Assembly: GCA_035512775.1 (NCBI GenBank)
Contig: DATKDI010000024.1
Coordinates: forward strand, 18,077 to 82,076
DNA: 64,000 nucleotides
Reading direction: 5' to 3'
Source: Actinomycetota bacterium
GTDB lineage: Bacteria; Actinomycetota; UBA4738; HRBIN12
How positions within the stretch are numbered: the stretch's first letter is position 1; each line of letters opens with the position of its first letter. Shown in pieces: positions 11,522 through 62,189 of the stretch. The notes below the pieces were generated by a model, which saw only the letters and a program-made list of their open reading frames with translations, did no database searches and was not told where the DNA came from. A program made the position numbers and the translations under genes.

Positions 11522-11582
11522 GGCGAGATGACCACCTCGGAGCTCGAGCGAACTGCGACCCGGGCTGACCTAGACTCGCCCC

Positions 11583-17257: not shown

Positions 17258-18220
17258 TGACGATCTTGCCGGCGGCGTGTCCTTCCTCGAGGTACCGGAT
17301 CGCGTCCGGGGCCTCGATCAGCGGGTAGGTGCGGTCGATCACCGGGATGAGCGTGCCGGCGTCGATCAGCTCCGCGAGGGTGACGAGGTCCTCGTGCTTG
17401 ACCTTCGAGGCCAGCCCGCGGAGCTTCTGACCCACGAGCAGGGACACCAGCGGCGCTCGCAGCACGCCGCGGAAGAAGCCACCGGTCCAGCGTCCACCTC
17501 CGTCGCCACCCACGATCACGAGGGTTCCCTTCGCGGTGAGTGCGCGGCGCAGCTCCGACAGCGGACGACGGCCGGCGGTGTCGACGATCACGTCCCAGCG
17601 TCGCGCGCCGTTCGCGAAGTCCTCGCGCGTGTAGTCGATCACGTCGTCTGCCCCGATCGAGCGGATCAGGTCCATCTTCGAGGTGCTGCCGACGCCGGTG
17701 ACGGCCGCGCCGTACGACTTGGCGATCTGCACCAGGAGTGAGCCCACCCCCCGGCCGCACCGACGACCAGGACGTTCTGCCCCGGCTGCACCTTCCCGAT
17801 GTCACGTACAGCTCGCAGGGCGGTGGTACCGGAGATCGGCACCGCGGCCGCCTGCTCGAAGGTGAGGTTCGCGGGCTTGAGGACCAACTTGTCCGGGCGG
17901 GCGATCACGTGCTCGGCGAAGGAGCCGCCTTCGGAGGCGCCCATCACCTCGTCGCCGGGCCGGAGGCCGGTCACGTTCGCGCCGACCGCTTCGACGGTTC
18001 CCGCGACGTCCCAGCCCCGGACGTTGAGCTTCGGTCGGCGGAGGCCGATCGCGGGGCGCGCCATGTACGGCATGCCGGTCATCAGGTGCCACACGTCGGG
18101 GCCGCAGCCCGCCGCGTGCACCCGGACGAGCACGTCGCCCTCGCCGACCTTTGGCTCGTCGATGTCTCGGAACTCCAAGACGTCTGCCGAGCCGTATCGA
18201 TCCTGCACGATGGCCTTCAT
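17247..18220 (-). pseudogene. Zinc-type alcohol dehydrogenase/quinone-oxidoreductase (MDR family) with a -1 frameshift in a G-homopolymer.
   Basis: N-terminal part MKAIVQDRYGSADVLEF...VLVVGAAGG. C-terminal part in another frame (VGSLLVQIAKSYGAAVTGV...). The run G7 has become G6 at about 17745-17750 (plus-strand cccccc). An intact paralogue lies at 20280-21332. Confidence 0.6.
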
Positions 18221-18253
18221 CCGGATCCCCTCCCTTGCCCAGGATGTTCCTGT

Positions 18254-18302
18254 GTGTACGCCGTACACTTCGGGGGGTGGAGACTACGTGTACGGCGTAC
18301 AC
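18254..18302. promoter_or_regulatory. Two 15-bp palindromic TetR-type operator candidates (GTGTACGCCGTACAC at 18254-18268, GTGTACGGCGTACAC at 18288-18302) in the divergent intergenic region.
   Basis: The two sites are exact reverse complements of each other and each is near-palindromic. They lie between the divergently transcribed ADH pseudogene and the TetR gene. Confidence 0.5.
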
Positions 18303-19655: not shown

Positions 19656-20207
19656 ATGGCGAAGCTGATCTACTCGGGGATCATGTCGCTCGACGGCTAC
19701 ATCGCGGACGAGAACGGCAACTTCGATTGGGCCGAGCCGGACGAGGAGGTGCATGCCTTCGTCAACGACCTCGAGCGGCCGATCGGCACCTACCTCTACG
19801 GACGTCGGATGTACGACGTGATGGTCGCGTGGGAGTCCATCGAGGACGAGCAGCCTTCCATCAAGGACTACGCGGAGATCTGGCGGGCTGCCGACAAGAT
19901 CGTCTACTCCCGGAGACTGGAGAAGGCCTCCAGCGCGAGGACGCGCCTCGAACGAACCTTCGACCCCGACGCGATCCGGGAGATGAAGGCCGCGGCGGAA
20001 CGCGACATCAGCGTGGGTGGTCCCGAACTCGCGGCGCAGGCGATCCGGGCGAGCCTGGTCGACGAGATCCATCTGTACCTCTCGCCCATCGTGGTGGGAG
20101 GCGGCACGAAGGCGCTTCCGGACGAGGTCCGCGTAGAGCTCGAGCTCCTGGCCGAACACCGATTCCGCGATGGCGTCGTGTACCTCCGGTACGGCACCAA
20201 GAACTAA
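19656..20207 (+). CDS. Dihydrofolate-reductase-family / RibD C-terminal-domain protein.
   Basis: MAKLIYSGIMSLDGYIADENG...RRMYDVM...VGGPELAAQAIRASLVDEIHLYLSPIVVGGG, typical of YwjB/RibD_C-like reductases. Confidence 0.7.
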   Translation: MAKLIYSGIMSLDGYIADENGNFDWAEPDEEVHAFVNDLERPIGTYLYGRRMYDVMVAWESIEDEQPSIKDYAEIWRAADKIVYSRRLEKASSARTRLERTFDPDAIREMKAAAERDISVGGPELAAQAIRASLVDEIHLYLSPIVVGGGTKALPDEVRVELELLAEHRFRDGVVYLRYGTKN

Positions 20208-20279
20208 CGGTGATCAGAGGACAGGCTCCATCTGTTCCTGCCGCCTCCATCCCTACACTTCCTCCGCCACCCCCGATGC

Positions 20280-21332
20280 CTAGCTGACCTCCGCTCTGCG
20301 AAAACGGACCGGAAGGCAACGTCGTTCCACGGTGATGACGACTTTTCCTTGCACCTGCCCTGTTTCCAGGTAGCGGATCGCCTCCGGAACCTCGCTCAAG
20401 GGGAAGGTCCTGTCGATGACCGGAGTGATCTTCCCGGCTTCGATGAGCTCCTTCAGGACGACCAAGCGGTCGCCCGGATCCTTGGCGCCGCGGAAGGGAT
20501 GCAGCTGGCTCACGAACGGGGCGATCACCATCAGCTTGAAGAATCGACCCAGGCTTCCGACCCAACGATGGCCCGAGCCTCCGTACTGATCGTGCCCGAT
20601 CAAGACGTAGATCCCCTCAGGAGTGAGCGCGCGCTTGAGGTCCGACCACGGATGGTTCCCCGCGATGTCGAGGACGAGGTCGTAGCGCTCGGCGCTCCGA
20701 GTGAAATCTTCCTGCGTGTAGTCCAGGACCCGGTTCGCGCCGATAGATCGGAGCATGTCGAGCTTCCCGGGGCTGTCCACTGCGGTCACGTCCGCTCCGT
20801 ACGCCTTGGCGAGCTGCACGGCGGTGGTCCCCACACCTCCACCCGCTCCGTTGATCAAGACCTTCTGTCCCGACTGGACCCGTCCCTCATCGCGGATGCC
20901 CTGGACCGCGATCTGACCCGAGGTGAGGACGGCCGCGGCCTGTTCGAACGTGAGGTTGGCCGGTTTCCGCTCGAGCCCAGCTTCGGGAACGGCCGCGTAC
21001 TCGGCATAGGTGCCACCGTTGCGCCAAAGGTTGGCCCCGATGCTCGGTCCGAACACCTCGTCCCCCGGTCGGAAGCGCATCACGTTCCGGCCCACCGACT
21101 CGACGGATCCCGCCAGATCGGTACCCGGGACGGCGTTCTTCGGTCTGCGCGATCCGGATCCCATGATGCGGAGCACGTAGGGCACCCCTCGCAGGGCGTG
21201 CCACACATCAGGATGGACCGAGGTCGCGCGGACCCGGACCAGCACCTCGTCATCTCCGGCGGTCGGCCTGTCGATCTCTCGGAGCTCGAGGACGTCGGGC
21301 GAGCCGTACCGCTCCTGGACGATCGCCTTCAT
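20280..21332 (-). CDS. Zinc-type alcohol dehydrogenase / NAD(P)H quinone-oxidoreductase (MDR family), intact.
   Basis: MKAIVQERYGSPDVLEL... with the cofactor motif LINGAGGGVGTTAVQLAK. The ATG overlaps the upstream methyltransferase stop (ATGA at 21329-21332). Confidence 0.75.
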   Translation of the reverse strand: MKAIVQERYGSPDVLELREIDRPTAGDDEVLVRVRATSVHPDVWHALRGVPYVLRIMGSGSRRPKNAVPGTDLAGSVESVGRNVMRFRPGDEVFGPSIGANLWRNGGTYAEYAAVPEAGLERKPANLTFEQAAAVLTSGQIAVQGIRDEGRVQSGQKVLINGAGGGVGTTAVQLAKAYGADVTAVDSPGKLDMLRSIGANRVLDYTQEDFTRSAERYDLVLDIAGNHPWSDLKRALTPEGIYVLIGHDQYGGSGHRWVGSLGRFFKLMVIAPFVSQLHPFRGAKDPGDRLVVLKELIEAGKITPVIDRTFPLSEVPEAIRYLETGQVQGKVVITVERRCLPVRFRRAEVS

Positions 21333-22057
21333 CGTCCGTAGACCGACACGACGTTGCCCGTCGAGGTGAACGGCTCCCGGTTCCAGCCGTCCCAACGCTC
21401 CTTCAGACGCAGCCCGGCGATCCGCGCCATCAGGTCGAGCTCGCTCGGCCACGTGTATCGCTGCACGATCGGGAAGAGCCGTACGCCCTCGTTGGTCAAG
21501 CGAACGTGAGTCTCCTCGTGCCGCTGAGCCACCGGGTCGTGTCGACCGACATCGAACCAGACCTCATCGACGCCGATGGACTCCGCATGGACGTATCGGT
21601 CGTCGTACACGCGGTAGAGGAAGTTCGGGACGCCGGCCTCCACGAGGAACGATCCGTCGTCGGTGAGATGGGCGGCGACGCTCTCGAAGCAGCGCACCTG
21701 GTCCTCCTGGGTGAGCAGGTTGTGGAACGTGTTGTACACCACGTAGATCAACCGGTACTCGCCCGAGGCCGGCACATCGGCGAAGTCGCCCATCGTGACC
21801 GAGATCTGGTCACCACCCGGCTTCTCGCGCAGCCTGGCCACCATCGCGGGTGAGATGTCGATGCCGTCGACGCGGATCCCCCGCGCGGCGAGAGGCAGCG
21901 CGATCCGACCGGTGCCGATCGCGAGCTCGAGAGCGGGGCCACCGCCTGCGAGTTGCTCCAGGAATGAGACGGCCGCCTCCTCATCTCCCCGTGGCTCGTC
22001 GTCGTAGCTCTCGGCGGTCTCCTCGCCGAAGCTCATAGCCGGATCGTAGTTCTCCAT
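21329..22057 (-). CDS. Class I SAM-dependent methyltransferase.
   Basis: Motif I LELAIGTGRIALPLA and an overall MT fold. It is co-operonic with the ADH. Confidence 0.75.
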   Translation of the reverse strand: MENYDPAMSFGEETAESYDDEPRGDEEAAVSFLEQLAGGGPALELAIGTGRIALPLAARGIRVDGIDISPAMVARLREKPGGDQISVTMGDFADVPASGEYRLIYVVYNTFHNLLTQEDQVRCFESVAAHLTDDGSFLVEAGVPNFLYRVYDDRYVHAESIGVDEVWFDVGRHDPVAQRHEETHVRLTNEGVRLFPIVQRYTWPSELDLMARIAGLRLKERWDGWNREPFTSTGNVVSVYGR

Positions 22058-22101
22058 GTACCAACCTTATCCACGCGACGGTGCGCATCGGAAGGAGACT
22101 T

Positions 22102-22130
22102 GCGCCGGGGCGAACGTCCAGTGTTTCGAC
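22102..22130 (+). repeat. Intergenic ~28-bp repeat family, diverged copy.
   Basis: gcgccggggcgaacgtccagtgtttcgac, compared with the consensus GCGCCGGGGCGCGTGGACATTTAGCCCC. Confidence 0.4.
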
Positions 22131-22163
22131 ACTTCTCAAGAGCGGTACTGTCGCCGCCCTCAC

Positions 22164-22188
22164 GCGCCGGCGCGTGGATGTGATCGGG
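22164..22188 (+). repeat. Intergenic ~28-bp repeat family, copy.
   Basis: gcgccggcgcgtggatgtgatcggg. Confidence 0.45.
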
Positions 22189-22247
22189 CACACAACAGCC
22201 CAACTCACAGGCTAGGCTTCAGCTACACGAGCGGAAAGGAATCATGC

Positions 22248-23108
22248 ATGAGCGATGTCCCCGGCGGGCCAACGCCGCCGACTCCCCCTCCACCGCCGCC
22301 GATGATGGGCGGACCCCAGGGCGGCATCCCGCCGAAGACGGTGGGCGACATCCTGTCCGCAGCCTTCAACATCTATAAGGCGAACGCGTCGCAGCTGATC
22401 CTGGTCGTCGCGGTCGTGGTCGTCCCGCTGTCGCTGATCGGCGCTCTGTTCTCCGGAGTGGTGTTCGCTCCCGAGCGGATCCGAGTTACCAACACGGGAG
22501 ACGTGGTTGTGTTCGATTACGCTGGGCGTGGCCTCGGTGTCTTCCTCCTCGTTGGGGCGATCGGCGCATTAATCGGGGTGCTCATCTCGGCCATCCTGCA
22601 GGCTGCCATCCTGCGCGCCGCCGCGCAGGCCACGATCGGTGACCCGGTCGATGTCGAGGCGAGCTACCGATACGGGCTCAAGCGGTTGTGGAGCGTGATC
22701 CTTGTGTCGCTTCTGGTGGGCCTGATCGTCGCCGTGGGTTTCGTGCTGCTGGTGATCCCCGGGATCATCTTCCTCGTGTTCCTGTCGGTGTCGATCCCGG
22801 TGCTGATCGTCGAGGGCCGGCGCGGCACCGAGGCGATGGGACGATCGTGGAACCTGGTGAAGGGACACTTCTGGCATGCGCTCGGCGTGATCGTGGTCGC
22901 GGCGTTGATCGTCGGGGTCATCTCCGGGGTCATCGGGGCGATCGGCGGCAACAACTGGGCCGTGCGATGGATCTTCACCACCATCGCACAGATCCTGACG
23001 GTTCCGTTCGCGTCGCTCGTCTCGGTCCTTCTCTACCTGGACCTCCGCGCGCGGAGCGAGACGCTGTCCGCAGAGACCCTGCGGCGGGAGCTAGCTTCGG
23101 GCACCTAA
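22248..23108 (+). CDS. Polytopic membrane protein with a Pro-rich N-terminus.
   Basis: MSDVPGGPTPPTPPPPPPMMGG... followed by about six TM helices. RBS GGAAAGGA. Confidence 0.6.
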   Translation: MSDVPGGPTPPTPPPPPPMMGGPQGGIPPKTVGDILSAAFNIYKANASQLILVVAVVVVPLSLIGALFSGVVFAPERIRVTNTGDVVVFDYAGRGLGVFLLVGAIGALIGVLISAILQAAILRAAAQATIGDPVDVEASYRYGLKRLWSVILVSLLVGLIVAVGFVLLVIPGIIFLVFLSVSIPVLIVEGRRGTEAMGRSWNLVKGHFWHALGVIVVAALIVGVISGVIGAIGGNNWAVRWIFTTIAQILTVPFASLVSVLLYLDLRARSETLSAETLRRELASGT

Positions 23109-23220
23109 CGTTCGGGTGCGGTGTGATGCTCGACCTGCCCGGCAAGGAGCGCCCTCGAAGCCCTTGGCTGACTTGGGGTGAGACAGTCGCTCACCTTCCA
23201 ACACTAGATGCAGGCTCCTG

Positions 23221-23248
23221 GCGCCGGAGCGCGTGTCAAATCAGAGCA
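23221..23248 (+). repeat. Intergenic ~28-bp repeat family, copy A.
   Basis: gcgccggagcgcgtgtcaaatcagagca. Confidence 0.5.
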
Positions 23249-23283
23249 TGTGAGGCAACGGACGCCACCGGTGTAAACGCCGG

Positions 23284-23547
23284 GTGACTCTAACGTCGGG
23301 GGCTCGGCTTCGCGGCCTCAGGCCCCTGGCATCCGGGCGAGTGAAGCGACTCTGGGATGCGCGAGTGTTCGGACATACTGAAGGTCATGACCATGGGGCG
23401 CTCGAGGCGTTCGGTGGCTCACCGGGCGTCCTCGAGAGGTTGATCCGCCGAGAGGACCTCTCTGGTGAAGAGGCGGCCGCGGCGCTGTTGCGCTCGCTCA
23501 GGTTCGAGAAGGTGACGGTGGTGTTCGAGCGGCCACCGGCGACGTGA
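23284..23547 (+). CDS. Small hypothetical protein (87 aa).
   Basis: Its stop overlaps the GTG start of the downstream phosphotransferase gene (acGTGAac). No domain was recognised. Confidence 0.35.
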   Translation: MTLTSGARLRGLRPLASGRVKRLWDARVFGHTEGHDHGALEAFGGSPGVLERLIRREDLSGEEAAAALLRSLRFEKVTVVFERPPAT

Positions 23548-24389
23548 ACCGCGCACGGCTGCGCGAACTGGGCTTCGAACTCGGCGCTCGCGCCGAGGGC
23601 GGTGTATCCGACGACGGTGCGTGGTTCGCGACGGCGCCGGACGGCGCGCCGGTGGTGCTCAAGTGGTTCCCGGACGAGACCGTCGCCGAGCGCTATGCGG
23701 TCCTGCTCCCCGGCCTCGACGAGCTCCGATCACGCGGCGTCCCGGTACCGGAGTACCCGCACGTCCTCGCCGTCGACGGCTGGACGCTGTCGGCGCAGCA
23801 GGTCCTGCCGGGTGCGTCGGTACGCAACCCGTCACGGGCGGTGGTGGAGCAGGTGGTCGAGTGCGTCGCCGCCATGGCCGGTGTCGCCTGTCCGCTGCCG
23901 GCGCCGGACCTGCGCCCATGGGGTGCGTCCGTCGTGCACACGCTCACCGTCGGCGTGGACGGGTGGGCGATGCACGAACCGCTGCGCACCGGGGGTCGTC
24001 GCAGCGCGGCGGTGCTCGACCGAGTGGAGGCCGTCGGCGCCGACGCCGACCCGGCGTGGTTCCCGACCGACGGGCTCGTGCACCTGGACCTGCACACCGA
24101 CAACATCCTCGCCGGCGACGACGGCACCCTCACCGGGATCATCGACTGGGAGGGCGCGTGCGCCGGCGATCCCCGCTTCGATCTCGTCAGGTTCGCGTAC
24201 GACCTCGACGGGCACGATCAACCGGTCTGGGACGTCGTTGAGGCCACCGGCATCGAGCGGCGCGTGCTTCGAGCCTACGTCGCCCACCACGCGCTGCGGT
24301 GCACGTCCTGGCAGATCCACCACCACACCGATGACGTGCCCCGCCAGCTCGACCGCGCCGAGCGCGTCCTCGATCGGTACGAGGCCTAG
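23544..24389 (+). CDS. Aminoglycoside/small-molecule phosphotransferase (APH-like kinase fold).
   Basis: Catalytic-loop motif HLDLHTDNIL and IDWEGACAGDPRFD. Confidence 0.75.
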   Translation: MNRARLRELGFELGARAEGGVSDDGAWFATAPDGAPVVLKWFPDETVAERYAVLLPGLDELRSRGVPVPEYPHVLAVDGWTLSAQQVLPGASVRNPSRAVVEQVVECVAAMAGVACPLPAPDLRPWGASVVHTLTVGVDGWAMHEPLRTGGRRSAAVLDRVEAVGADADPAWFPTDGLVHLDLHTDNILAGDDGTLTGIIDWEGACAGDPRFDLVRFAYDLDGHDQPVWDVVEATGIERRVLRAYVAHHALRCTSWQIHHHTDDVPRQLDRAERVLDRYEA

Positions 24390-24411
24390 GAGACGGCGGC
24401 CGTGGCCGAAC

Positions 24412-24439
24412 GCGCCGGGGCGCGTGCACGTTATCAACC
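24412..24439 (+). repeat. Intergenic ~28-bp repeat family, copy B.
   Basis: gcgccggggcgcgtgcacgttatcaacc. Confidence 0.55.
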
Positions 24440-24531
24440 GTAAGGGCGGTGCTCCAGAGGAGGGCAGACGCAGTCACGGCCCCGACCAAAGGGACACTCC
24501 GACGGCACGAATCCCCGCCCGTGTAGGTTCG

Positions 24532-25009
24532 ATGGCGATGGGGGCGAAGGCTAGGGCCGCGATCGAGGACGGGAATCGCGTGGCGGTGGATCGGCTGCGG
24601 GCATTTGGCGCGCTCTCGGATGAGGAGCTCACCCGGGTGATCGATGCGCCGTGGAGCGCCGCCGCACTATTCGCACATATGGCGTTCTGGGATCGCTTCG
24701 TTCGTCGCCAGGTGGCTGCTCGCCGCCACCACCGGGAGTCGTACACCTCTTCCGATCGACAACGCTGTTCAGGAACTCGTTCAGGCACTGGTCAATGATG
24801 CGTCCCAGCAACAATGGGCCGTCATGCCACCCCGGACCGCCTTCCAGGATTGCCTCGCGGCGGCTGCTGAGATCGATTCCCTGATCGCGTCGCTCGGAGC
24901 GGATGTCGTCTCGGAAGTAATGCGGGCGGGGCGAGAGCGTCTGGTGGACCGTTCGCTCCACCGAGATGAACACCTCAACACACTCGAGACTGCGTTCCCC
25001 CTCTCATAA
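24532..25009 (+). pseudogene. DinB/DUF664-like protein disrupted by a 4-bp tandem duplication.
   Basis: The N-terminal frame (..DEELTRVIDAPWSAAALFAHMAFWDRFV) and the C-terminal frame (ARWLLAATTGS...SLHRDEHLNTLETAF) are joined by removing one ttcg from cTTCGTTCGtcgcc at about 24694-24701. Confidence 0.5.
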
Positions 25010-25064
25010 CGCCTGAGTGGCAACGCCTTAATCGCAGATCCGGTAACCCGCTTCGCGGCGGCGG

Positions 25065-25094
25065 CCGCCGGGGCGCGTGGCCAATTTAGCCTCC
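25065..25094 (+). repeat. Intergenic ~28-bp repeat family, copy C.
   Basis: ccgccggggcgcgtggccaatttagcctcc. Confidence 0.55.
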
Positions 25095-25115
25095 GATAGG
25101 CGTCCACTGACGGTC

Positions 25116-25574
25116 GGTAGTGGGTCAGTTTGAATCTGAGGGGTGATCCTGGGCGTCAGTTTCGAGGAGGTCGCTGGCGCCGGCGACGGTGAGCACCCGG
25201 TGCGCGGCGCGCGACGGGTTGCGGAGGACTAGTGAGCCGCCGTTCTTTGTGAGTCGACCGCGCGCTTGGACAAGCACGTGCAGGCTCGACGAGTCCATGA
25301 AATCGACCTCGGAGAGGTCCAAAACGATGGTCTGCTTGGGACCCATGTGGGGTTCGATGGCGTCTCGCAGCCGTCCCGCGGTCGCCATGTCGATCTCGCC
25401 GCGGACGTGGATGACCGTCGCCTCGTCCGTTGCGTTGACCTCGGTCGAGAAGTCTTCGGCCATCAACCGGAATTTAGTGGCCCTATCGGGCGGGTGGCAA
25501 TTCTCCGTCGGTCCCGGGTGGTGTCTCAGCTCAAGCACGTCAACGGGGGGACTCATTCAAACTGACCCACTACC
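25116..25574. mobile_element. MITE-like mini-element, copy 1. A 459-bp unit carries a STAS-domain gene and is bounded by perfect 19-bp terminal inverted repeats (GGTAGTGGGTCAGTTTGAA / TTCAAACTGACCCACTACC). An 8-bp direct repeat TGACGGTC lies immediately outside both ends.
   Basis: The inverted repeats and flanking direct repeats were read directly from the sequence. A second copy lies at 28412-28866. Confidence 0.45.
25125..25463 (-). CDS. STAS-domain anti-sigma-factor antagonist (SpoIIAA-like).
   Basis: MAEDFSTEVNATDEATVIHVRGEIDMATAGRLRDAI...IVLDLSEVDFMDSSSLHVLV, a canonical STAS fold with the conserved phosphorylatable Ser region. Confidence 0.8.
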   Translation of the reverse strand: MAEDFSTEVNATDEATVIHVRGEIDMATAGRLRDAIEPHMGPKQTIVLDLSEVDFMDSSSLHVLVQARGRLTKNGGSLVLRNPSRAAHRVLTVAGASDLLETDAQDHPSDSN

Positions 25575-25808
25575 TGACGGTCGGGGAGGAAGGCACGCTA
25601 TCGTCCGGACATGCCCACCGACGACCACGCCCTCGTGAACAGAGCCACCTGGGACGAGGACGCGCGAAACTGGGATCCAGCGAGGACGAGCCAGCCCTAC
25701 GTTCCGCTGGAATGGGCGAGGCGATGGCCGAGCGCGGAGGCGTGGAAGGTGCGCAAGCTCCGCTAGCTGGTCCTGGCCCTGGTCGTGCATGTGCAACTGG
25801 CGGCCGAT

Positions 25809-25836
25809 CACGCCGGGGCGCTTGGACTTATTCGCC
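25809..25836 (+). repeat. Intergenic ~28-bp repeat family, copy M.
   Basis: cacgccggggcgcttggacttattcgcc. Confidence 0.5.
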
Positions 25837-25860
25837 ACACCCCAGGACTTGGGCTCCAGG

Positions 25861-26781
25861 CTACAGGGTGCTAGACGCGCTCCGCTCGGGCTCGCTCTCG
25901 GGCACGCGAACGAGGTCCCCCGATCGCGATTCCCCGAGCGTCAGCTCGGCCGTTACCGCGAGCCCCAGGTGCAGGGCCAGCGACGAGAGGAAGGACCACA
26001 GAAGGAGCGCGATGACCGAGAGCAACGACCCGTAGGCGGCGTTGCCGCTCAGTGAGAAGTACAGACCGAGAGCGAGGCTGAACAGGAACCAAAGCGCGAC
26101 CGATGCCGCCGTCCCCGCGGCGAGCGCCGCGCGAGAACCAATGCGTTCTCGCGGCGCCGTTCGAAACAGGAGGTAGATGCCGACAGCGGCCACCGCGACC
26201 CCAAGGGGCCAGCGCACTATGGTCCAGACCGTCAGCGCCGCACCCCCCCAGCCGAGGCCCTCGGAGATCGCCCGGCCGCCGGCGAGCGCGAGCCCCCCGG
26301 CTGCCAGGAGCACCCCCGCGGACAACGAGAGAACGAACGCGACGCCGTAGCGCTTCCCGAATGGTCGATCCTCGGTCCTACCGGCGAGGCGGTTGGCGGA
26401 TCGCTCGACCTGCGCCATCGCCAGCGTGCCCGCTAGCAACGCCGCCAGCAGCCCGAGGACCATCGCGGTCGTCCCTCCGTTGGCGCCCTGACGTGCCGCC
26501 TCTCGAAGCAGCTGGCCCGACGGACCAGGAGAAAGCGTGTCGGCCATCTGCTCGACGATGCCTCGGATCCGCGGCAGATCGAACGCGCTGGCCAGGCCCA
26601 CCAGCCCAATGAAGCCGGAGAGCAGCACGAACATCGACTGGTATGCGAGCGCCCGTACGTGACTCGAGCCGTCGGTCTCCCGGAACCGCTTCAGGGAGAA
26701 TCTCGCGATCTCACCCCCGCCCCGCCGGCGGACCGGTCGCCACGCCGCGCCGAAGCCCCGCTCCTTCCCGGGCGTGTCCAT
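25861..26781 (-). CDS. YihY/BrkB-family membrane protein.
   Basis: HVRALAYQSMFVLLSGFIGLVGL... and six TM helices, typical of the YihY family. Confidence 0.7.
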   Translation of the reverse strand: MDTPGKERGFGAAWRPVRRRGGGEIARFSLKRFRETDGSSHVRALAYQSMFVLLSGFIGLVGLASAFDLPRIRGIVEQMADTLSPGPSGQLLREAARQGANGGTTAMVLGLLAALLAGTLAMAQVERSANRLAGRTEDRPFGKRYGVAFVLSLSAGVLLAAGGLALAGGRAISEGLGWGGAALTVWTIVRWPLGVAVAAVGIYLLFRTAPRERIGSRAALAAGTAASVALWFLFSLALGLYFSLSGNAAYGSLLSVIALLLWSFLSSLALHLGLAVTAELTLGESRSGDLVRVPESEPERSASSTL

Positions 26782-26975
26782 CAGCCGCCGTCGACCATCT
26801 GCGTATCCCTATCGGTCATCCAGTCCTCTTGGAGTCAGTCTCCTTCGAGATATTCCCCTCGTCGAATTGGCAAGAGCAAGCCTACGTGGGCAATGGCCCC
26901 ACGTGCCCCGGGAGGACGTCGGCAATGGAGCCTAGAGGGGGTCAGCGGCTGCGTGGCCTCGTCGCGTGGGCTCCA

Positions 26976-27003
26976 GCGCTGGGACGCGTGGACATTTAGC
27001 CCC
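26976..27003 (+). repeat. Intergenic ~28-bp repeat family, copy N (near-consensus).
   Basis: gcgctgggacgcgtggacatttagcccc. Confidence 0.6.
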
Positions 27004-27031
27004 CCGGCAGGCCCATCCGCCTGGCCTCCGG

Positions 27032-27511
27032 TCAGACAGGAGTGAACGTTACGGTGATCTCAGCGGCGGTGGGCCGGCCGGACGCGTTGCGAACGTGGAG
27101 TGTCCACCCGCCTCCGCGCTGAGCTTCGAGGGCCGGGAACTCCTGGAGGCAAACGATCTGATCGGTCTCCTCGACACAGCCCTCGTCCGTGGTACTGCTT
27201 CTCACTAGATCGAGCCGCTGTCCGTAGGGCGCGAGGAACCAGAGGCTCAGCCTGGCCGAAGGCTTCACCACGAGCCGAACCTCGAACGTGTGGGTCGGCG
27301 GATCGAGCGCCTCCACCAGGTATGCCTGATGCTCTCGGGCATCTAACGCCAGCGTTCGGGTCATGCCGTTCGGCTGCTCGGGAACTCCGGGCACGGAGGA
27401 CTCAGAGACCGTCGGAGAGTGAACGACCTCAGTCCCGGTGCAGGACGTTGCTGCGATGATCGCGACCCAAGCACCAAGTACCCGGTATCGAGTCCTGGGT
27501 TCGAGGAACAC
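27032..27511 (-). CDS. Putative lipoprotein / secreted hypothetical protein.
   Basis: Signal peptide with a lipobox-like AATSCTG. 159 aa. Confidence 0.5.
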   Translation of the reverse strand: MFLEPRTRYRVLGAWVAIIAATSCTGTEVVHSPTVSESSVPGVPEQPNGMTRTLALDAREHQAYLVEALDPPTHTFEVRLVVKPSARLSLWFLAPYGQRLDLVRSSTTDEGCVEETDQIVCLQEFPALEAQRGGGWTLHVRNASGRPTAAEITVTFTPV

Positions 27512-27571
27512 GCTCCGTAACCTCTCCCGTTGGAGGGTAGTCGCGTTCTGATACGCGAGGGCGGCCCTCGG

Positions 27572-27599
27572 GTGCCGGGGCGCGTGGCCTTTACACCTA
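27572..27599 (+). repeat. Intergenic ~28-bp repeat family, copy D.
   Basis: gtgccggggcgcgtggcctttacaccta. Confidence 0.55.
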
Positions 27600-27665
27600 G
27601 GCTAGAGGTATCGCGCTGAGCGATCCTCAGGCCTCCTGGCTCGACCTTCCGCCGAGTACCGGCCT

Positions 27666-28232
27666 CTACAGCTTCACCTGATCCCGCCCAGCGCCGGCGC
27701 CCGAAACCTCTTGTGAGACGGATGGCCGTTGGACCCTTCGTATCTCACCCAACCCGACGATGACGAGCCCGACTGCAATGAGGAGCACCGACACTTGGAA
27801 CGCGACGCGAAGGCCGTCGCTCAGCTCGGGAGCGTCTTCCATACCGACCCTCGCGCCAAGGACATATGTCGCGAGGAGCACCACGGAGCCTGCCGTCGCG
27901 ACGACGGCCCCAATCCTGTCTCGTCCGGCCAACACGAGACCGATCACGAAGATCCCGAAGCCCACAGGAATCAGCGGGAAAACGGCAAGCAGCCCGGCAA
28001 TCGCCACCGCAGCCCCCGCCCTGGTCACCCAAGAGCCGACGATCGGTTGTGTGACGTAGCGTGCCGTCAGGACGAGTCCGATCGAGAGCAGCACCATCGA
28101 CATGCCGTGCACCGCGAGCGCCACGGGCCAGGGGATGGCGTCATTGACGGATGTAGGAGCGGCGCCCCAGAAGATCAAGAACGCGAATGACCCCAGGACA
28201 AGGGACCACCCACCAATCCCGTATCCCTTCAT
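27666..28232 (-). CDS. Polytopic membrane protein (hypothetical).
   Basis: About six TM helices. 188 aa. Confidence 0.5.
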   Translation of the reverse strand: MKGYGIGGWSLVLGSFAFLIFWGAAPTSVNDAIPWPVALAVHGMSMVLLSIGLVLTARYVTQPIVGSWVTRAGAAVAIAGLLAVFPLIPVGFGIFVIGLVLAGRDRIGAVVATAGSVVLLATYVLGARVGMEDAPELSDGLRVAFQVSVLLIAVGLVIVGLGEIRRVQRPSVSQEVSGAGAGRDQVKL

Positions 28233-28346
28233 CCGGCGAGCGTAGCAGTACGACGTTCCGTAACTTCAGAGCGGCGCATTGAGGCGCCTCGCTACCGCGG
28301 ACCTTGCCGACGATAATCCGGTCCGGCCGCGTCGCGGGCCCCGCAC

Positions 28347-28374
28347 GCGCCGGAGCGCGTGACCCATTACAACT
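28347..28374 (+). repeat. Intergenic ~28-bp repeat family, copy E.
   Basis: gcgccggagcgcgtgacccattacaact. Confidence 0.5.
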
Positions 28375-28411
28375 TATTCAGCCGCGCCCCCGCAAGCCCG
28401 ACAGCTCCGTC

Positions 28412-28866
28412 GGTAGTGGCTCAGTAATCTGAGGGGTGATCCTGGGCGTCAATTTCGAGGAGGTCGTTGGCGCCGGAGACGCTGAGCACCCGGTGCGCGG
28501 CGCGCGACGGGTTGCGGAGGATCAGTGAGCCGCCGTTCTTTGTGAGTTCACCGCGCGCTTGCACAAGCACGTGCAGGCTCGACGAGTCCATGAACTCGAC
28601 CCCGGAGAGGTCCAAAACGATGGTCTGCTTGGGACCCATGTGGGGTTCGATGGCGTCTCGCAGCCGTCCCGCGGTCGCCATGTCAATCTCGCCGCGGACG
28701 TGGATGACCGTCGCCTCGTCCGTTGCGTTGACCTCGGTCGAGAAGTTTTCGGCCATCACCGGAATTTAGTGGCCCTATCGGGCGGGTGGCAATTCTCCGT
28801 CGGTCCCGGGTGGTGTCTCAGCTCAAGCACGTCAACGGGGGGACTCATTCAAACTGACCCACTACC
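28412..28866. mobile_element. MITE-like STAS mini-element, copy 2.
   Basis: Same right arm TTCAAACTGACCCACTACC. The left arm is GGTAGTGGCTCAGTAATCTGA, with a 4-bp deletion. The internal approximately 100-bp upstream region is identical to copy 1. Confidence 0.45.
28421..28756 (-). CDS. STAS-domain anti-sigma-factor antagonist, paralogue of 25125-25463.
   Basis: MAENFSTEVNATDEATVIHVRGEIDMATAGRLRDAIEPHMGPKQTIVLDLSGVEFMDSSSLHVLVQARG, about 92% identical to copy 1. Confidence 0.8.
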   Translation of the reverse strand: MAENFSTEVNATDEATVIHVRGEIDMATAGRLRDAIEPHMGPKQTIVLDLSGVEFMDSSSLHVLVQARGELTKNGGSLILRNPSRAAHRVLSVSGANDLLEIDAQDHPSDY

Positions 28867-28916
28867 CAACTCGTCAGCCACCGCTTAGGCAAGCGCTTCC
28901 AGGACCCGGCAAGATT

Positions 28917-28948
28917 GCCCCGGGGCATCGGCGCGGATTTAGTGTCGC
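28917..28948 (+). repeat. Intergenic repeat family, degenerate copy.
   Basis: gccccggggcatcggcgcggatttagtgtcgc. Confidence 0.35.
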
Positions 28949-29184
28949 CTGTCCTCCGGCGGGTTCGGGTCGCGTCCGGGTGGCACGGTATCCTTGTCAC
29001 GGATGCGCCCATCCTGTCCGTGAATCACGACTTCTCCGCCGCCTGCGTTGCCAACGATCTCCTTCGCTCGGCGCTCGGCCTGTGCCTGGGTCTCGTGATG
29101 CGACGACGCGCGGTCAGCCTTCGGCGCCTTCACGTCCCACCCGCCTTCAGGGTTCTTCACGACGTGTCGATCCTTCTCGCCCAT
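28939..29184 (-). CDS. DUF2188-domain small protein.
   Basis: MGEKDRHVVKNPEGGWDVKAPKADRASSHHETQAQAERRAKEIVGNAGGGEVVIHGQDGRIRDKDTVPPGRDPNPP, a typical DUF2188 sequence. Confidence 0.65.
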   Translation of the reverse strand: MGEKDRHVVKNPEGGWDVKAPKADRASSHHETQAQAERRAKEIVGNAGGGEVVIHGQDGRIRDKDTVPPGRDPNPPEDRRH

Positions 29185-29198
29185 TCCTCTACTCCTGC

Positions 29199-29246
29199 TC
29201 CCGGATCTGTTGCCCGGCTGACTCCCGGATCTGTTGCCCGGCTGAG
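29199..29246. repeat. Perfect 24-bp tandem direct repeat (TCCCGGATCTGTTGCCCGGCTGAC x2), 15 bp upstream of the DUF2188 start.
   Basis: Read directly from the sequence. Possible regulator-binding direct repeats. Confidence 0.6.
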
Positions 29247-29380
29247 CACCAGAGTAGGGAGCGGGTCTGACACCGCAGCGGCGTGATTTGCGCAACCCCT
29301 TTGACCTGCGACTTTGCGGCGGATATGTGAGGGGCGGTGAGGGGTGAAGGGCAACGGATGATCGGTGGGGGCGGTGCTCT

Positions 29381-29407
29381 GCGCCGGAGCGCGCGGACAT
29401 TATCCCG
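29381..29407 (+). repeat. Intergenic ~28-bp repeat family, copy F.
   Basis: gcgccggagcgcgcggacattatcccg. Confidence 0.5.
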
Positions 29408-29455
29408 ACCATGCCTCTCTCACAGCGTCTGCTGCATGTCAGGAGACGAGGTCGA

Positions 29456-29936
29456 TTAGTCCCCGGCGATCGTGAGCCAAAGGGGCGCGCCTGCTATGCC
29501 GAATCCAGCTCGTTCGTAGAAGATCGTGGAGCGTTCGCTCGGCCAAACGACCACGCCATCGACTCCGCGTGTGTTCGCGAAGCCCAGCGCTTCGTCGAGC
29601 AGGCGACGACCGAGTCCCGCGTTCCGGAGTTCGGGTGCAACGTACATGTTCGTCACATAAGCGACCGGTCGTTCCCAGCGGTCTCGGCTGGGGTGGGGGA
29701 TCCTCTCGACGAGCTGCAGCCAGACGCACCCCACGAGCTGGTCATCCTCCTCCGCAACCCAGGCGCGCCACGGCCCGCCCTGAGTGAGGGCGTCGTCCAC
29801 GAACGCTCGAAACCCGTCCAGGAAACTCTCGAACGTGAGCGCGGCCTTCGTGTTGTGCTCGCACCGGAAGTCCCACCGGAGACGTGCGAGCTCCATCGAG
29901 TCGGTTGCGACCGCAGGGCGAACCGAAGGCGTCACG
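29456..29936 (-). CDS. GNAT-family N-acetyltransferase.
   Basis: ...VRPAVATDSMELARLRW...LVGCVWLQLVERIP...NMYVAPELRNAGLGRRLLDEALGFA, an acetyl-CoA binding motif. The start is uncertain: GTG at 29936 or ATG at 29896. Confidence 0.7.
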
Positions 29937-30075
29937 GTTGCCAGGCTAGCGGGTCGCTCTGGCGACCTGTAGGAGGCGGCTCGGAGATCAGTGCGCTGCG
30001 CGCTGTTGATTCGAGAGCGCCGGCTGGGAACGGGGTTCATGCCCGGGCCCACTGCGGTGCCCAGGCGGGCAGCAG

Positions 30076-30103
30076 GCGCCGGGGCGCGTAGCCTTTAGTG
30101 GCC
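30076..30103 (+). repeat. Intergenic ~28-bp repeat family, copy G.
   Basis: gcgccggggcgcgtagcctttagtggcc. It abuts the stop of the methyltransferase gene. Confidence 0.55.
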
Positions 30104-30105
30104 TT

Positions 30106-30903
30106 CTACTGCCTATGTGATACGGCGAGGAAGTGCAAACTCACGCCAATCACCGTGGTTTCGGTCTCGACCGCCCGTGCCACTCGCAGAATGTTCTCGC
30201 GGTCCTGTTCGTCGTCCCACCGCTCCCACAGCAGCCATCCTGGTCCTTCCACCCCATACATCGCCTCGAGCGACAACCCAGCGGCCTGGATCTCCTCTCT
30301 GAGCTCGTCCGGATGATGGAAGAACGCGGTCGTGAACCACTCCGGTCGCTCGGTTGGGTTGTCGTGCTGCCCGGACGCTAGATCACCTTTCACTATCGCC
30401 CGAAAATCGGGATTGGTGAGCGCGGCCGTCTTGAGACCGTCGAGTAGGGATCCGAACCGGGAGATGGCAGCCGCGAAGACAAGGCCGCCGACGCGAACAA
30501 CTCGACGAGCTTCGGATAGGGCTTGCACCCTATCTTCTTGTTCCGACAGGTGGTACAGCGGACCCATCAAGAGGACTGCGTCGTATCTCTCGTCTGCGGC
30601 GGAGATGTTCCTTGCGTCTCCCAATTCGGCCGTGAAGCGCGGACCCGACGCCGCCCGCGCTGTGGCTTGCTCTACATGAAGGGGAACAACGTCGACAAGA
30701 TGGGCGTCGTAGCCGCGATCCGCCAACCACGAAGAGTAGCGGCCTGGTCCGCCTCCGACGTCGAGGATCTGTGCTGGTGGCCCGGGAAGATGCCGAGCCA
30801 GCAGCTCTTTGGTCCGCGCAAACTCGATCCGTGAGGAGCCGCCCTCAGTCAGTCTGGGCTCTTCGATCCCCAGCGTGTAGTGGGCGAGAACTTCGGGGTC
30901 CAT
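30106..30903 (-). CDS. Class I SAM-dependent methyltransferase.
   Basis: Motif I ILDVGGGPGRYSSWLA. 265 aa. Confidence 0.75.
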   Translation of the reverse strand: MDPEVLAHYTLGIEEPRLTEGGSSRIEFARTKELLARHLPGPPAQILDVGGGPGRYSSWLADRGYDAHLVDVVPLHVEQATARAASGPRFTAELGDARNISAADERYDAVLLMGPLYHLSEQEDRVQALSEARRVVRVGGLVFAAAISRFGSLLDGLKTAALTNPDFRAIVKGDLASGQHDNPTERPEWFTTAFFHHPDELREEIQAAGLSLEAMYGVEGPGWLLWERWDDEQDRENILRVARAVETETTVIGVSLHFLAVSHRQ

Positions 30904-30980
30904 GCTGGAACGATAGGGCGCATCAGTTCGGTTGGGAACCCATGACTACTCACCGCTATCGCGTCTTGTAGAGGCCGCAC

Positions 30981-31008
30981 AAGCTGGGGCGCGTGGACAT
31001 TTAGTCCC
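30981..31008 (+). repeat. Intergenic ~28-bp repeat family, copy H (near-consensus).
   Basis: agctggggcgcgtggacatttagtcccc. Confidence 0.6.
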
Positions 31009-31010
31009 CG

Positions 31011-31262
31011 TTATGGGTGTGCGGCGTGCCGTTGGTTGGCGGACACTCCGCGAAATGCGGCGCGAACGGCCTGGAACACCAGAACTCCCACGGTCACGTT
31101 GATGAAGCCAAGCGACGCTGCGCCGGCAAAGTGGGCGAGGTCGGAGACGATGCCCGTCGCAAGGAGCAGCACTGCCCAGCCAATGGTCGCGGCCGGGATC
31201 GAGACTCGCCACCATTTGCCGAATACGAGGCCAGCGAGCAGCAACGTCGGAATCACACACAC
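31011..31262 (-). CDS. Small membrane protein (83 aa, two TM helices).
   Basis: MCVIPTLLLAGLVFGKWW...AVLLLATGIVSDLAHF. Confidence 0.45.
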   Translation of the reverse strand: MCVIPTLLLAGLVFGKWWRVSIPAATIGWAVLLLATGIVSDLAHFAGAASLGFINVTVGVLVFQAVRAAFRGVSANQRHAAHP

Positions 31263-31313
31263 AGCTTACGTGCATGGATGCAGGGACGCAGATCGTGTGA
31301 GGCGCGGGCCGCG

Positions 31314-31341
31314 CGCGCCGGGGCGCGTGGACGTTTTTACA
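31314..31341 (+). repeat. Intergenic ~28-bp repeat family, copy I.
   Basis: gcgccggggcgcgtggacgtttttacat. Confidence 0.6.
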
Positions 31342-31366
31342 TGTCTCGGAACAGAGGCGGAAACCC

Positions 31367-32203
31367 CTAGGTGCGCCCCCGTATGACCGCGATGATGTGC
31401 GTCCCGCCGTCAAGCGCACCGGGCTCCGAGCTTGCGGAGACCTCCCAATCGAGGAATTGCTCCCATCTCGCGGGGTCGGGGAGCCAAGCCTCGGAAAGAT
31501 CGCCGGTACCTGCCGACAGGAAGTTCGCCGCCGAGGCTGCGACCACGTCTGCCCCGTGGCGCTCGAGCAGATCCCGCAACTCGGCCCACCTGTACATGTG
31601 CATCCGGCCCGTACTCGACTGCTCGGCAGGGAGGTCTCCGGTCTCGAATATCGCCTGCCATCTCTCAGCCCCGTAGCTCTCCCATTCCTCAGCCAGGCTA
31701 CCGAGGTAAGCACGCAGCGTTCCCATGTTTGACATGACGCTCACCAGAACCAGCCCACCCGGCTTTGTCACTCGGAGCAGTTCATGAACGGCGTCGTCCA
31801 CGCGATCCATCGCGTAACTGAGCGGACCGCCGAAGCACGACGTCACGTCGAACGATCCATCGGCGAAATCGACTAGATCGACCACGTCAGCCTCAGCCCA
31901 TGCCTCGATCTGGTCCTCGAGCCCGGCCTCCGTCACGTGCATCCGGTTCAGGTCCAACTGGACGCCGGATATGTCAGTTGCGGTCACTCGAGCGCCGAGT
32001 CGCGCTAGCTCTACCGTGAACCGCCCGGCGCCAGCCCCCACTTCCAACACAAGGTCGCCTTGCCTCACGAACTGCCGCAGGTAGTGCAAATGGATGTGGA
32101 ACGAGACGCGCGCCATCGGCGACGATTCGTGCCTGTTCCACTCCTGGTCACCATACGCATCGAACACTCGAGCGATGTGTTCTTTGTCGTAGAGGTCGCC
32201 CAT
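31367..32203 (-). CDS. Class I SAM-dependent methyltransferase.
   Basis: Motif I LEVGAGAGRFTVELARLGARVTATDIS. 278 aa. Confidence 0.75.
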   Translation of the reverse strand: MGDLYDKEHIARVFDAYGDQEWNRHESSPMARVSFHIHLHYLRQFVRQGDLVLEVGAGAGRFTVELARLGARVTATDISGVQLDLNRMHVTEAGLEDQIEAWAEADVVDLVDFADGSFDVTSCFGGPLSYAMDRVDDAVHELLRVTKPGGLVLVSVMSNMGTLRAYLGSLAEEWESYGAERWQAIFETGDLPAEQSSTGRMHMYRWAELRDLLERHGADVVAASAANFLSAGTGDLSEAWLPDPARWEQFLDWEVSASSEPGALDGGTHIIAVIRGRT

Positions 32204-32250
32204 CGACCGATGGTATACGGGGAACCATCCCGATGATGTCGGCGGCTCCT

Positions 32251-32278
32251 AGCGCTGGGGCGCGCGCCACCGCCACCC
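32251..32278 (+). repeat. Intergenic repeat family, degenerate copy J.
   Basis: agcgctggggcgcgcgccaccgccaccc. Only the left half is conserved. Confidence 0.35.
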
Positions 32279-32502
32279 GCCCGCGGTGCGGGAGAGTGCG
32301 CCGGAAGCTCCCGGCAGTTCGCCCGAGGATCTGGGTTGCCAGCCCTTCCTCAGAGCGCGGCTTCGGGAGCAGCGGAACCGGTCCGGCGTCTCCCCCAGCC
32401 GCCGCCCCACGCAGCGCACCCTCCCGGCTTATCGTGAAACCGGGCGCGGGCGCCAGGGGCTCTTCGTTGCCCTGTCCCGCTGCTCCTGCTCTCCGGTTTC
32501 GC

Positions 32503-32530
32503 GCGCCGGGGCGCGAGGACGTATCGACCC
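32503..32530 (+). repeat. Intergenic ~28-bp repeat family, copy K.
   Basis: gcgccggggcgcgaggacgtatcgaccc. Confidence 0.55.
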
Positions 32531-32612
32531 CTTAGAGGCGAGCCACCTACGATGCGGCAGCTTGCTGACGGTTGCGGAGGACTCTGTGCAGCGTCAGGCG
32601 TCTGGAGCTGCT

Positions 32613-33005
32613 CTAGGGGGTCAACGCAGCATCAGCGGCTGTTTGGTCCTGTCCCATGAGCCACGCCTCGGTGGCGATGCCGTCCTTCACGTGCCAGACG
32701 TGGACGCCCTTGCCCCGGAACGGATGCGGCTTCTCCCACCAGCTCTCGACCATAACGACCGAATGCTCGTCGTTGGCGAGCAGGTCGTGGATCTCCTGGC
32801 CGAACGTTCCCGCCGTGAGCTCGGCGAGCTTCGCGAAGTTCCCGAAGACCGCGTCCTTACCCGCGAAGTCTCCCGAGAGTGGGCCGCTGCCCGCTTGATG
32901 CCAGGCGATGTCGTCGGCGAAGAGCGCCGCGACCGTCTCCACGTCCCCGGCCGCGAACGCCTCGTATCCCTTCCGCAATGCCTCAGCGTTCGGATGATCA
33001 CCCAT
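32613..33005 (-). CDS. SnoaL-like / NTF2-fold (ketosteroid-isomerase-like) protein.
   Basis: MGDHPNAEALRKGYEAFAAGDVETVAALFADDIAWH... 130 aa. Typical NTF2-like N-terminus. Confidence 0.65.
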   Translation of the reverse strand: MGDHPNAEALRKGYEAFAAGDVETVAALFADDIAWHQAGSGPLSGDFAGKDAVFGNFAKLAELTAGTFGQEIHDLLANDEHSVVMVESWWEKPHPFRGKGVHVWHVKDGIATEAWLMGQDQTAADAALTP

Positions 33006-33275
33006 GGCCCCTCCCTTTCCTCCTGTGGACAGGGCCCGACGCTACTGCCAGACGAGACATGAACGCAAACCGTCAGCGGCTTATGCCCTCGCGCAGCTTC
33101 GCGACGAGCACTGCTTTCGAGCGCCGGGACTCCTCGAGGTCGATCCGAAAGTCCGCGATCGCCGGTCGGCCTTAGAACTCCCCGATCCTGCCGCGCGGTC
33201 GTAGTCGGCGGGCAGCATGAGGACATGGAGCAGCTCGGCGCGCGGCGTCGGCCGGCCTAGTTGCGCGGGCTGCCT

Positions 33276-33303
33276 GCGCCGGGGCGCACGCCGCCGCCCT
33301 CCC
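33276..33303 (+). repeat. Intergenic repeat family, degenerate copy L.
   Basis: gcgccggggcgcacgccgccgccctccc. Confidence 0.35.
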
Positions 33304-62187: not shown

Positions 62188-62189
62188 TC

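Follow-up and report, generated by a model that had tools for sequence, protein, structure and literature searches.

The 64-kb stretch analysed here (the window: 64,000 nt of contig DATKDI010000024.1 in the Actinomycetota assembly GCA_035512775.1, from an uncultured soil actinobacterium) carries between 22.1 and 33.3 kb an array of about 14 gene-sized units of 0.25-1.2 kb, mostly with one gene each, with a ~45-nt site repeated between them. This feature is genuine, and its cassette-like organisation is supported. Since single units of the array turn up in other loci, a system that shuffles cassettes is indicated. We consider it about an even bet (probability roughly 0.5) that conservative site-specific recombination assembled the block as a cassette array and that the recombinase is encoded elsewhere. 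Since no recombinase was found in the window, this mechanism is one that we infer from sequence comparisons.

A profile built from the copies and searched with nhmmer recognised 12 strong sites, all on the same strand and all between 23.2 and 32.5 kb of the window (E 1.5e-8 to 2e-5). Weak or partial copies were found by the same search at 32242-32265, 33267-33287, 22155-22180, and 22099-22112, and an inverted stretch at 22060-22075 that resembles the left block of the site is a fifth degenerate copy. An earlier note on this DNA had listed 17 copies in the same orientation; the count stands as 12 strong plus 5 partial or degenerate copies, and the shared orientation holds for the 12 strong copies but not for the inverted remnant at 22060-22075. 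The note had also found no copy elsewhere in the 64 kb, and indeed nothing in the other 52 kb of the window scored below E=1 with the profile. The 11-nt core GCCGGGGCGCG has 13 plus-strand occurrences at up to one mismatch, located at 23.2-33.3 kb. The clustering and the uniform orientation of the copies are far beyond chance: by our own arithmetic, uniform placement would put 12 copies inside the block with a probability of (11.2/64)^12, or about 8e-10, and all 12 on one strand with a probability of 2^-11. The 28-mer quoted earlier as the family motif has a single match at up to three mismatches (26976-27003), which makes it one copy and not the consensus, and it was therefore dropped as a query in favour of the core search and the profile. 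It is the reverse complement of the site as read in gene sense, because the genes at 24.6-33.0 kb lie on the minus strand.

Read in gene sense, the site is TAAAtGTCCA-CGCGCCCC|GGCGCGnGCGGCC, where the bar marks the palindrome centre, or, as taken from the alignment, nnTAAAtGTCCA-CGCGCCCCGGCG-CGnGCGGCC. It consists of a left arm (TAAAt-GTCCA), a GC core (CGCGCCCC|GGCG), and a right arm (CGnGCGGCC). The core forms an imperfect palindrome of ~26 bp that is extragenic and lies just 3' of genes; 10 of the 12 strong copies begin 7-87 nt 3' of the stop codon of the co-oriented gene, in agreement with the 0-80 bp given previously. Conservation across the alignment is biased to the left: columns 23-33 vary little or not at all, the AT-rich box and GTCCA are also well preserved, and variation is greater in the right arm. 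This left-biased conservation, together with the lack of compensatory changes in either palindrome register, fits recognition of the DNA sequence by a protein.

To look for the units outside the window, counterpart loci were traced from members of the 90%-identity clusters of the cassette proteins, and the contigs L125 and L124 were recovered by a metagenome scan with a specific 21-mer. Four units have counterparts with 89-94% nucleotide identity in four unrelated loci:

27584-26993, hyp159 unit: counterpart L152/L153, 94% nucleotide identity
26971-25832, YihY unit: counterpart L162, 89% nucleotide identity
28329-27593, hyp188 unit: counterpart L167, 93% nucleotide identity
32264-31314, MTase278 (methyltransferase) unit: counterpart L166 10029-10983, 93% nucleotide identity

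None of the called neighbouring genes is common to the array and L152/L153, L162, L167, or L166. All eight homology ends of these four units (8/8) fall between -10 and about +32 nt of a site core, for which we calculate a chance expectation of ~0.054^8. The 5' break of the hyp159 unit lies exactly at the palindrome centre (CGCGCCCC|GGCACC in the window versus CGAGCTCT|GGCACC in L152), and its 3' break follows CTAAATG. The homology of the counterparts in L152, L162, and L167 to their units extends from +8 relative to the upstream core up to -5/-10 relative to the following one, such that only (T)AAATGTCCACGCGCCCC is additional in the array. The profile detected no site at all in L152, in L167, or in the flanks of the YihY gene in L162. 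Degenerate pseudo-sites seen by eye at the boundaries in L152 and L167 were dropped, as they have no profile match even at E<=30. Likewise, a GNAT gene and an 81-aa open reading frame (ORF) in L152 were rejected as homologues of the GNAT and hyp83 genes of the window (29% identity and no alignment, respectively). An intergenic region beside the site-free hyp159 homologue (L152 3549-3746) has a tRNA-like 3' end (GGTTCGAATCC T-arm).

Two units were seen in a second context that is flanked by sites, which bears out the motif-bounded units with unit-wise variation envisaged in the earlier note. The 3.3-kb contig L125 has four sites, each 3' of a gene, in the order IMPase (minus strand), site, hyp81, site, hyp133, site, DinB_2, site; L124 has one site. 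The hyp81 unit of L125 is homologous to the hyp83 unit of the window from site to site, with a copy of the motif on both sides (67% nucleotide identity), and the neighbours are IMPase, hyp133, and DinB_2 in L125 versus two methyltransferases in the window. The MTase278 unit stands alone in L166 among core metabolic genes (malic enzyme, lactamase_B, and PNT), with a core-bearing half-site (CGCGCCTC|AGCGC) at its 5' end and a full site (E 1.2e-4) at its 3' end. All 17 copies that lie within an array in L166, L125, and the window face the same way.

The half-sites travel with their units. The right half-site upstream of hyp83 is, among 20, the closest to its L125 counterpart (67%, rank 1), and the left half-site downstream of hyp83 ties for closest (77%), whereas the opposite half-sites around this gene rank 13-14 of 20. 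The right half-site upstream of MTase278 is 87% identical to that of L166 (rank 1), and the corresponding left half is 50% identical. The right arm thus appears to go with the unit downstream of the site, and the left arm and left core half with the unit upstream of it, suggesting a crossover at the CC|GG palindrome centre or just to its left. In the small sample of three comparisons, the 5' boundary lies at or left of +8 (the CCCC|GG centre); the 3' boundaries relative to the site-free loci are at -5 to -10. One lone site (GATAACGTCCGCGCGCC-CGGCACCTGCCGCC, with a 1-nt deletion in the C run) is located at L162 4288-4325. It lies 1.1 kb from the site-free YihY homologue, in a region of small hypothetical genes, and may be a vacant chromosomal target.

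If the array was built by conservative site-specific recombination, its units would be joined head to tail by the ~45-bp recombination site, and each cassette would comprise the right arm, a 5' region, the gene, a 3' region, and the left arm with the left core half. An excised unit would form a circle with one complete site, which could re-insert at any other site, whether in another array, at a lone chromosomal site (for example, L162 4288-4325), or in the same array. Exchange would occur at or just left of the CC|GG centre, and the expected outcome is arrays of a single orientation at a chromosomal hotspot. A site-specific recombinase encoded outside the 64-kb window would act in trans, with the double-stranded sequence as its target.

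Several points weigh against this mechanism. No recombinase, transposase, or HUH domain was detected on any called ORF of the 64-kb window, in line with the earlier note, which had seen no tyrosine recombinase (neither Phage_integrase nor another recombinase domain is present), and none was detected next to the sites in L125, L166, and L162. The array carries an extra 12-40 nt per junction relative to the site-free L152, L167, and YihY flanks of L162, and simple conservative recombination does not explain how sites became attached to genes of site-free loci, which are either source loci of the cassettes or old cassettes with decayed sites. Only two units were seen in a second site-flanked context and few motif-bearing contigs were recovered. 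Further, RecA-mediated exchange between 45-nt repeats could yield similar breakpoints. The co-occurrence of site-free counterparts at 89-94% nucleotide identity (L152, L162, and L167) with the single-cassette insertion in L166 raises a more specific and rather speculative idea, namely an undescribed Actinomycetota cassette system in which chromosomal genes with their own promoters might be made mobile by acquiring an ~18-nt half-site, TAAATGTCCACGCGCCCC.

The organisation of the block, in gene sense from the upstream end, is as follows; the sites were located with the profile:

33267-33287, minus strand: upstream end of the array, a partial site (core GTGCGCCCCGGCGC and right half) without the TAAAT-GTCCA left block
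32613-33005, minus strand: SnoaL/NTF2-like gene of unit 1, with an 87% nucleotide-identical homologue in a motif-free context in L149
32494-32538, minus strand: site, core 32515 (E 6.9e-7)
32275-32493, minus strand: ORF-less unit, 251 nt from core to core (32515 to 32264)
32242-32265, minus strand: partial site (core CGCGCCCCAGCGC and right half), the right half being 87% identical to the half-site found 5' of the MTase278 unit in L166
31367-32203, minus strand: MTase278 gene
31305-31347, minus strand: site, core 31327 (E 4.2e-8)
31011-31262, minus strand: hyp83 gene, a small membrane protein with two transmembrane segments, whose unit recurs in L125
30971-31015, minus strand: site, core 30993 (E 1.5e-8)
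30106-30903, minus strand: MTase265 gene (Pfam)
30066-30109, minus strand: site, core 30088
29456-30052, minus strand: GNAT gene (Pfam)
29372-29412, minus strand: site, core 29393
28939-29190, minus strand: DUF2188 gene (start approximate), in a unit shared with STAS element copy 2
28407-28866, minus strand: STAS element copy 2, a nested independent element with ~20-bp terminal inverted repeats, outside the site system
28341-28381, minus strand: site, core 28359
27666-28232, minus strand: hyp188 gene
27563-27605, minus strand: site, core 27584
27032-27511, minus strand: hyp159 gene
26967-27006, minus strand: site, core 26988 (the copy quoted in the earlier note)
25861-26781, minus strand: YihY/BrkB gene
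25799-25840, minus strand: site, core 25822
25108-25574, minus strand: STAS element copy 1, a nested independent element, 97-99% nucleotide-identical to copies upstream of ilvBNC (L138-L141)
25055-25099, minus strand: site, core 25077
24629-24973, minus strand: hyp114 ORF, of uncertain coding status and without a family match
24402-24443, minus strand: site, core 24424
23284-24389, plus strand: two-gene reverse-oriented unit, hyp87 and an APH-family kinase (Pfam)
23210-23253, minus strand: site, core 23233
22302-23108, plus strand: reverse-oriented membrane-protein unit (the longest ORF starts at 22056)
22060-22180, minus strand: downstream end of the array, three degenerate site remnants

Core-to-core unit lengths range from 251 to 1191 nt. 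The assignment of the genes at 24.6-33.0 kb to the minus strand is based on codon-position GC content and Pfam matches, and their order in gene sense is SnoaL, the ORF-less unit, MTase278, hyp83, MTase265, GNAT, DUF2188 with STAS, hyp188, hyp159, YihY, STAS, and hyp114; the two units with plus-strand genes (hyp87 with the APH kinase, and the membrane protein) are reverse-oriented. The cassette proteins correspond to HUF58414-HUF58425, and the units bring along their native 5' regions, such as the 190 nt preceding hyp159. The GC content of the block (63-67%) is lower than that of the flanks, as is the GC content at third codon positions. At the downstream end, the remnant at 22150-22180 (CACGCGCCGGCGCGTG) is a perfect 16-bp palindrome without the central CC, that at 22090-22115 consists of the core only, and that at 22060-22075 (the inverted, left-block-like TTATCCACGCGAC) abuts the start codon of the flanking methyltransferase. 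Pfam matches bear out the gene content listed previously for the APH kinase, the two STAS proteins, YihY/BrkB, DUF2188, GNAT, and SnoaL/NTF2; two of the three methyltransferases are inside the block and the third is on the flank. The unit described before as an empty cassette is without a callable gene in the 251 nt between cores 32515 and 32264, and the presence of several disrupted genes within units could not be confirmed. At 90% identity, the hyp188 protein clusters with a 464-aa "alkaline phosphatase family protein" (P0159) and may be a fragment; its homologue in L167 likewise has 188 aa.

The two STAS copies (25108-25574 and 28407-28866, minus strand) are 96-100% identical. The element is 467 bp long with ~20-bp terminal inverted repeats (GTAGTGGGTCAGTTTGAAT), includes a promoter-like site (TTGCCA-18-TAAATT), and is 97-99% nucleotide-identical to copies upstream of hyp100-ilvBNC-leuA in other metagenomes (loci L138-L147). 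While the duplication pointed out earlier is real, it is not that of a motif-bounded cassette: the element is independent, has its own terminal inverted repeats, and is nested within motif-bounded units, so that it gives no evidence for cassette duplication. STAS copy 1 is flanked by a 10-nt direct repeat, CGACCGTCAG. A near-identical 10-mer (CGACGGCCAG, 8/10) at L140 840-1440 is the loop of a hairpin formed by the element's two inverted repeats. These sequences suggest that the STAS element may move through hairpin loops.

Comparison with related contigs indicates that the block is accessory, in a variable locus bounded by site remnants. The conserved flanks are:

19656-22057: left flank with RibD_C, alcohol dehydrogenase, and methyltransferase, syntenic with L121 2288-4541
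34011-37134: right flank with 6PGL, 6PGD, and G6PD, syntenic with L120 and L121

L121 (G6PD 86% identical) has both flanks, and its homologues of window 19656-21986 and 34014 onwards are just 3.6 kb apart with other genes between them; L120 (G6PD 90%) has the right flank. Since both contigs carry different genes at the position of the block and no site motif, the block is strain-specific, as the accessory status proposed earlier would have it. The earlier note had named two outcomes as speaking against its cassette interpretation, a spread of the motif through the genome and a block that is fully syntenic in relatives; neither was seen, the former as judged from the 52 kb outside the block and ~195 kb of related loci.

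Elsewhere in the window, a zinc-type alcohol dehydrogenase (17247-18268, minus strand) is split into two overlapping ORFs (ADH_zinc_N_2 and ADH_N), probably by a frameshift or as a pseudogene. A helix-turn-helix (HTH) protein (Cro/Xre-like) adjoins a RES-domain protein at 61489-62720, and the two look like a toxin-antitoxin pair. Four adenylate/guanylate-cyclase-domain proteins are encoded at 8091-14750 and 56220-59099; two of them have ~1,000 aa with zinc-ribbon, cyclase, and AAA_16 domains, and one of these two also has TPR repeats. The first 2,000 nt (window 1-2000) have a GC content of 59% versus about 68% and encode a TIGR04255-family protein (861-1694) and a weakly supported HTH protein (244-864); this low-GC region may be another acquired segment. 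No tRNA genes were found in the window.

Since the sites follow genes and contain a GC palindrome, both a structured RNA or regulatory element and a divergent attC site have to be weighed against site-specific recombination at double-stranded sites. A terminator, mRNA stabiliser, or shared operator that marks co-regulated accessory genes and has no role in recombination would account for the 7-87 nt spacing from stop codons, and one copy (31309-31330) is terminator-like, but on the antisense strand. However, gene-strand RNA folds of 10 copies have z-scores of -2.3 to +1.4 without a shared hairpin or a U-tract, the window has 6 terminator-like matches against 5.0 expected (at a site only the two overlapping antisense matches of 31309-31330, and none on the gene strand), and no Rfam family matches even at E<=1. 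Covariation and the paired-cell fraction are no better than in shuffles in both palindrome registers, and outer stem pairs are broken without compensation in 4-8 of 18 copies (8/18 for one pair). A regulatory role also leaves unexplained why breakpoints coincide with the motif and why the motif is missing from counterpart loci; the terminator or RNA-element identity, one alternative in the earlier note, was rejected and a regulatory role of this kind is improbable. A canonical integron cassette array without integrase (CALIN) and with divergent attC sites would fit the single-gene units of one orientation, the sites 3' of ORFs, the ORF-less unit, and the typical cassette gene content, and the spacing of the left block (7 nt, 5 nt, 7 nt) superficially resembles R''-spacer-L''. 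Yet no RYYYAAC/GTTRRRY (R''/R') pair at 50-150 nt exists on either strand of the whole 64-kb window, which extends the earlier remark that such boxes were not clear. Within the 170 nt downstream, the best complement of the left box is no better than in shuffles (mean z +0.3 over 19 candidate core positions), and minimum-energy DNA folds of the sites have no common R/L-box hairpin. With neither boxes, a pairing partner, nor covariation, the attC identity was rejected; IntI was not found, and complete integrons are absent from Actinobacteria in IntegronFinder surveys (PMC9024848, PMC4889954). We give this explanation hardly any credence.

It is harder to set aside a small mobile palindrome, similar to a repetitive extragenic palindrome (REP) or a miniature inverted-repeat transposable element (MITE), with the mosaic produced by homologous recombination between dispersed copies and without cassette mobilisation. 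The ~26-bp extragenic core just after genes, the lack of a nearby recombinase, the isolated L162 copy, and the three units with site-free counterparts all suit such an element. The identity as a dispersed REP was nevertheless rejected because just three copies (the lone L162 site and the two flanking the L166 unit) occur in the ~195 kb of related DNA, which had been retrieved for other purposes, and the 52 kb of flanking chromosome has none. The in-array copies point one way, hairpin conservation and covariation are both absent, and one copy per unit junction is far denser than in known REP families. Moreover, the neighbours at each junction are different on either side, which rules out simple insertions, and we regard the REP- or MITE-like explanation as unlikely. 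Alternatively, units could have been captured de novo from ordinary loci, with the site added or duplicated at each insertion (through duplication of a ~12-18-nt target, or by one-ended or rolling-circle capture), rather than exchanged between pre-existing full sites. The extent of the matches in L152, L162, and L167, the confinement of the array-specific sequence to (T)AAATGTCCACGCGCCCC, and the native 5' regions of the units are consistent with capture. Conservation of the right arm among unrelated units is unexpected for arbitrary captured ends, though, no significant site-like sequence occurs at the boundaries of the site-free loci, no candidate enzyme was found, and those loci could equally be old cassettes that lost their sites to decay; such capture is doubtful. 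Finally, the source is a metagenome-assembled genome and the units resemble DNA of several other populations, as might be seen in a chimera joined at a shared repeat. Identity among the copies is limited to fewer than about 20 bases, which is not enough to mislead a de Bruijn assembler, and the same architecture occurs in L125 and L166 from other samples. The 1,666 bp of window 27210-25545, which span two junctions, recur with 100% identity in a Logan assembly made independently (L001); this argues against a chimera and makes it a very remote explanation.

Matches of genome contigs to the pattern TAAANGNCNACGCGYCCCRG (at least 118, in unrelated phyla) are chance singletons to a pattern that is too degenerate, and none of the matches listed has a second copy. 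Eleven viral-contig matches to GTCCACGCGCCCCGGCG were also judged to be chance, since the AT-rich left block is missing from all 11. A distant blastn search of a plasmid collection with 6.4 kb of the array gave no match, and literature searches returned no description of such arrays in Actinomycetota.

The block shares many features with integron arrays and CALINs: the chromosomal hotspot, small, functionally unrelated, mostly single-gene units in one orientation, a site after each ORF, ORF-less and a few reverse-oriented units, the same unit in different arrays, and site halves split between neighbouring units. It differs in having no R''/R' boxes, no R/L-box inverted repeat, and no conserved structure, in a crossover that probably maps to the centre of a short GC palindrome and not to G|TT, in units with their own upstream regions or promoters, in the lack of an IntI, and in a host phylum that is essentially without integrons (PMC9024848). 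In the PAISt of Streptomyces, where modules excise and accrete in tandem at an att site (PMC4057263), direct repeats of the att core likewise separate independently acquired segments at one chromosomal site, and recombination between any two repeats excises modules; PAISt-type modules are tens of kb long and come with an integrase, whereas the units here are 0.25-1.2 kb with one gene and no visible integrase. The array also has likenesses among systems with unlinked recombinases and short sites.

The pdif/Xer modules of Acinetobacter plasmids and the integrative mobile elements exploiting Xer (IMEX) are gene-sized, with ~28-bp two-arm sites around a short centre and a recombinase unlinked to the modules. 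Sites of the pdif type alternate in orientation and resemble chromosomal dif, whereas the sites described here have one orientation, a chromosomal location, and a different sequence. By eye, no convincing match to the actinobacterial dif consensus was seen, although the dif of this lineage may differ. REPs and bacterial interspersed mosaic elements (BIMEs) mobilised with REP-associated tyrosine transposases (RAYTs) are also short, GC-rich imperfect palindromes just downstream of genes. They are dispersed genome-wide in both orientations with a conserved hairpin, unlike the present site, which occurs in arrays and as rare lone sites, in one orientation and without hairpin conservation.

Should the motif prove to be a lineage-specific REP-like repeat, the finding would shrink to an unusual recombination hotspot. 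If the cassette mechanism is true, it points to a further recombinase that acts on a compact double-stranded DNA site of ~45 bp. The near-identical site-free counterparts of several units are a rare handle on the conversion of a gene into a cassette, a step that is unsolved for integrons; L152, L162, and L167 together with L166 would make cassette genesis directly observable and would define a new pair of recombinase and site. Among systems that stockpile and shuffle single-gene cassettes, integrons alone are well characterised, and Actinobacteria have almost none (PMC9024848). An unrelated second family of sites in soil Actinomycetota would then be doing an integron-like job, and cassette-array plasticity would have evolved more than once.

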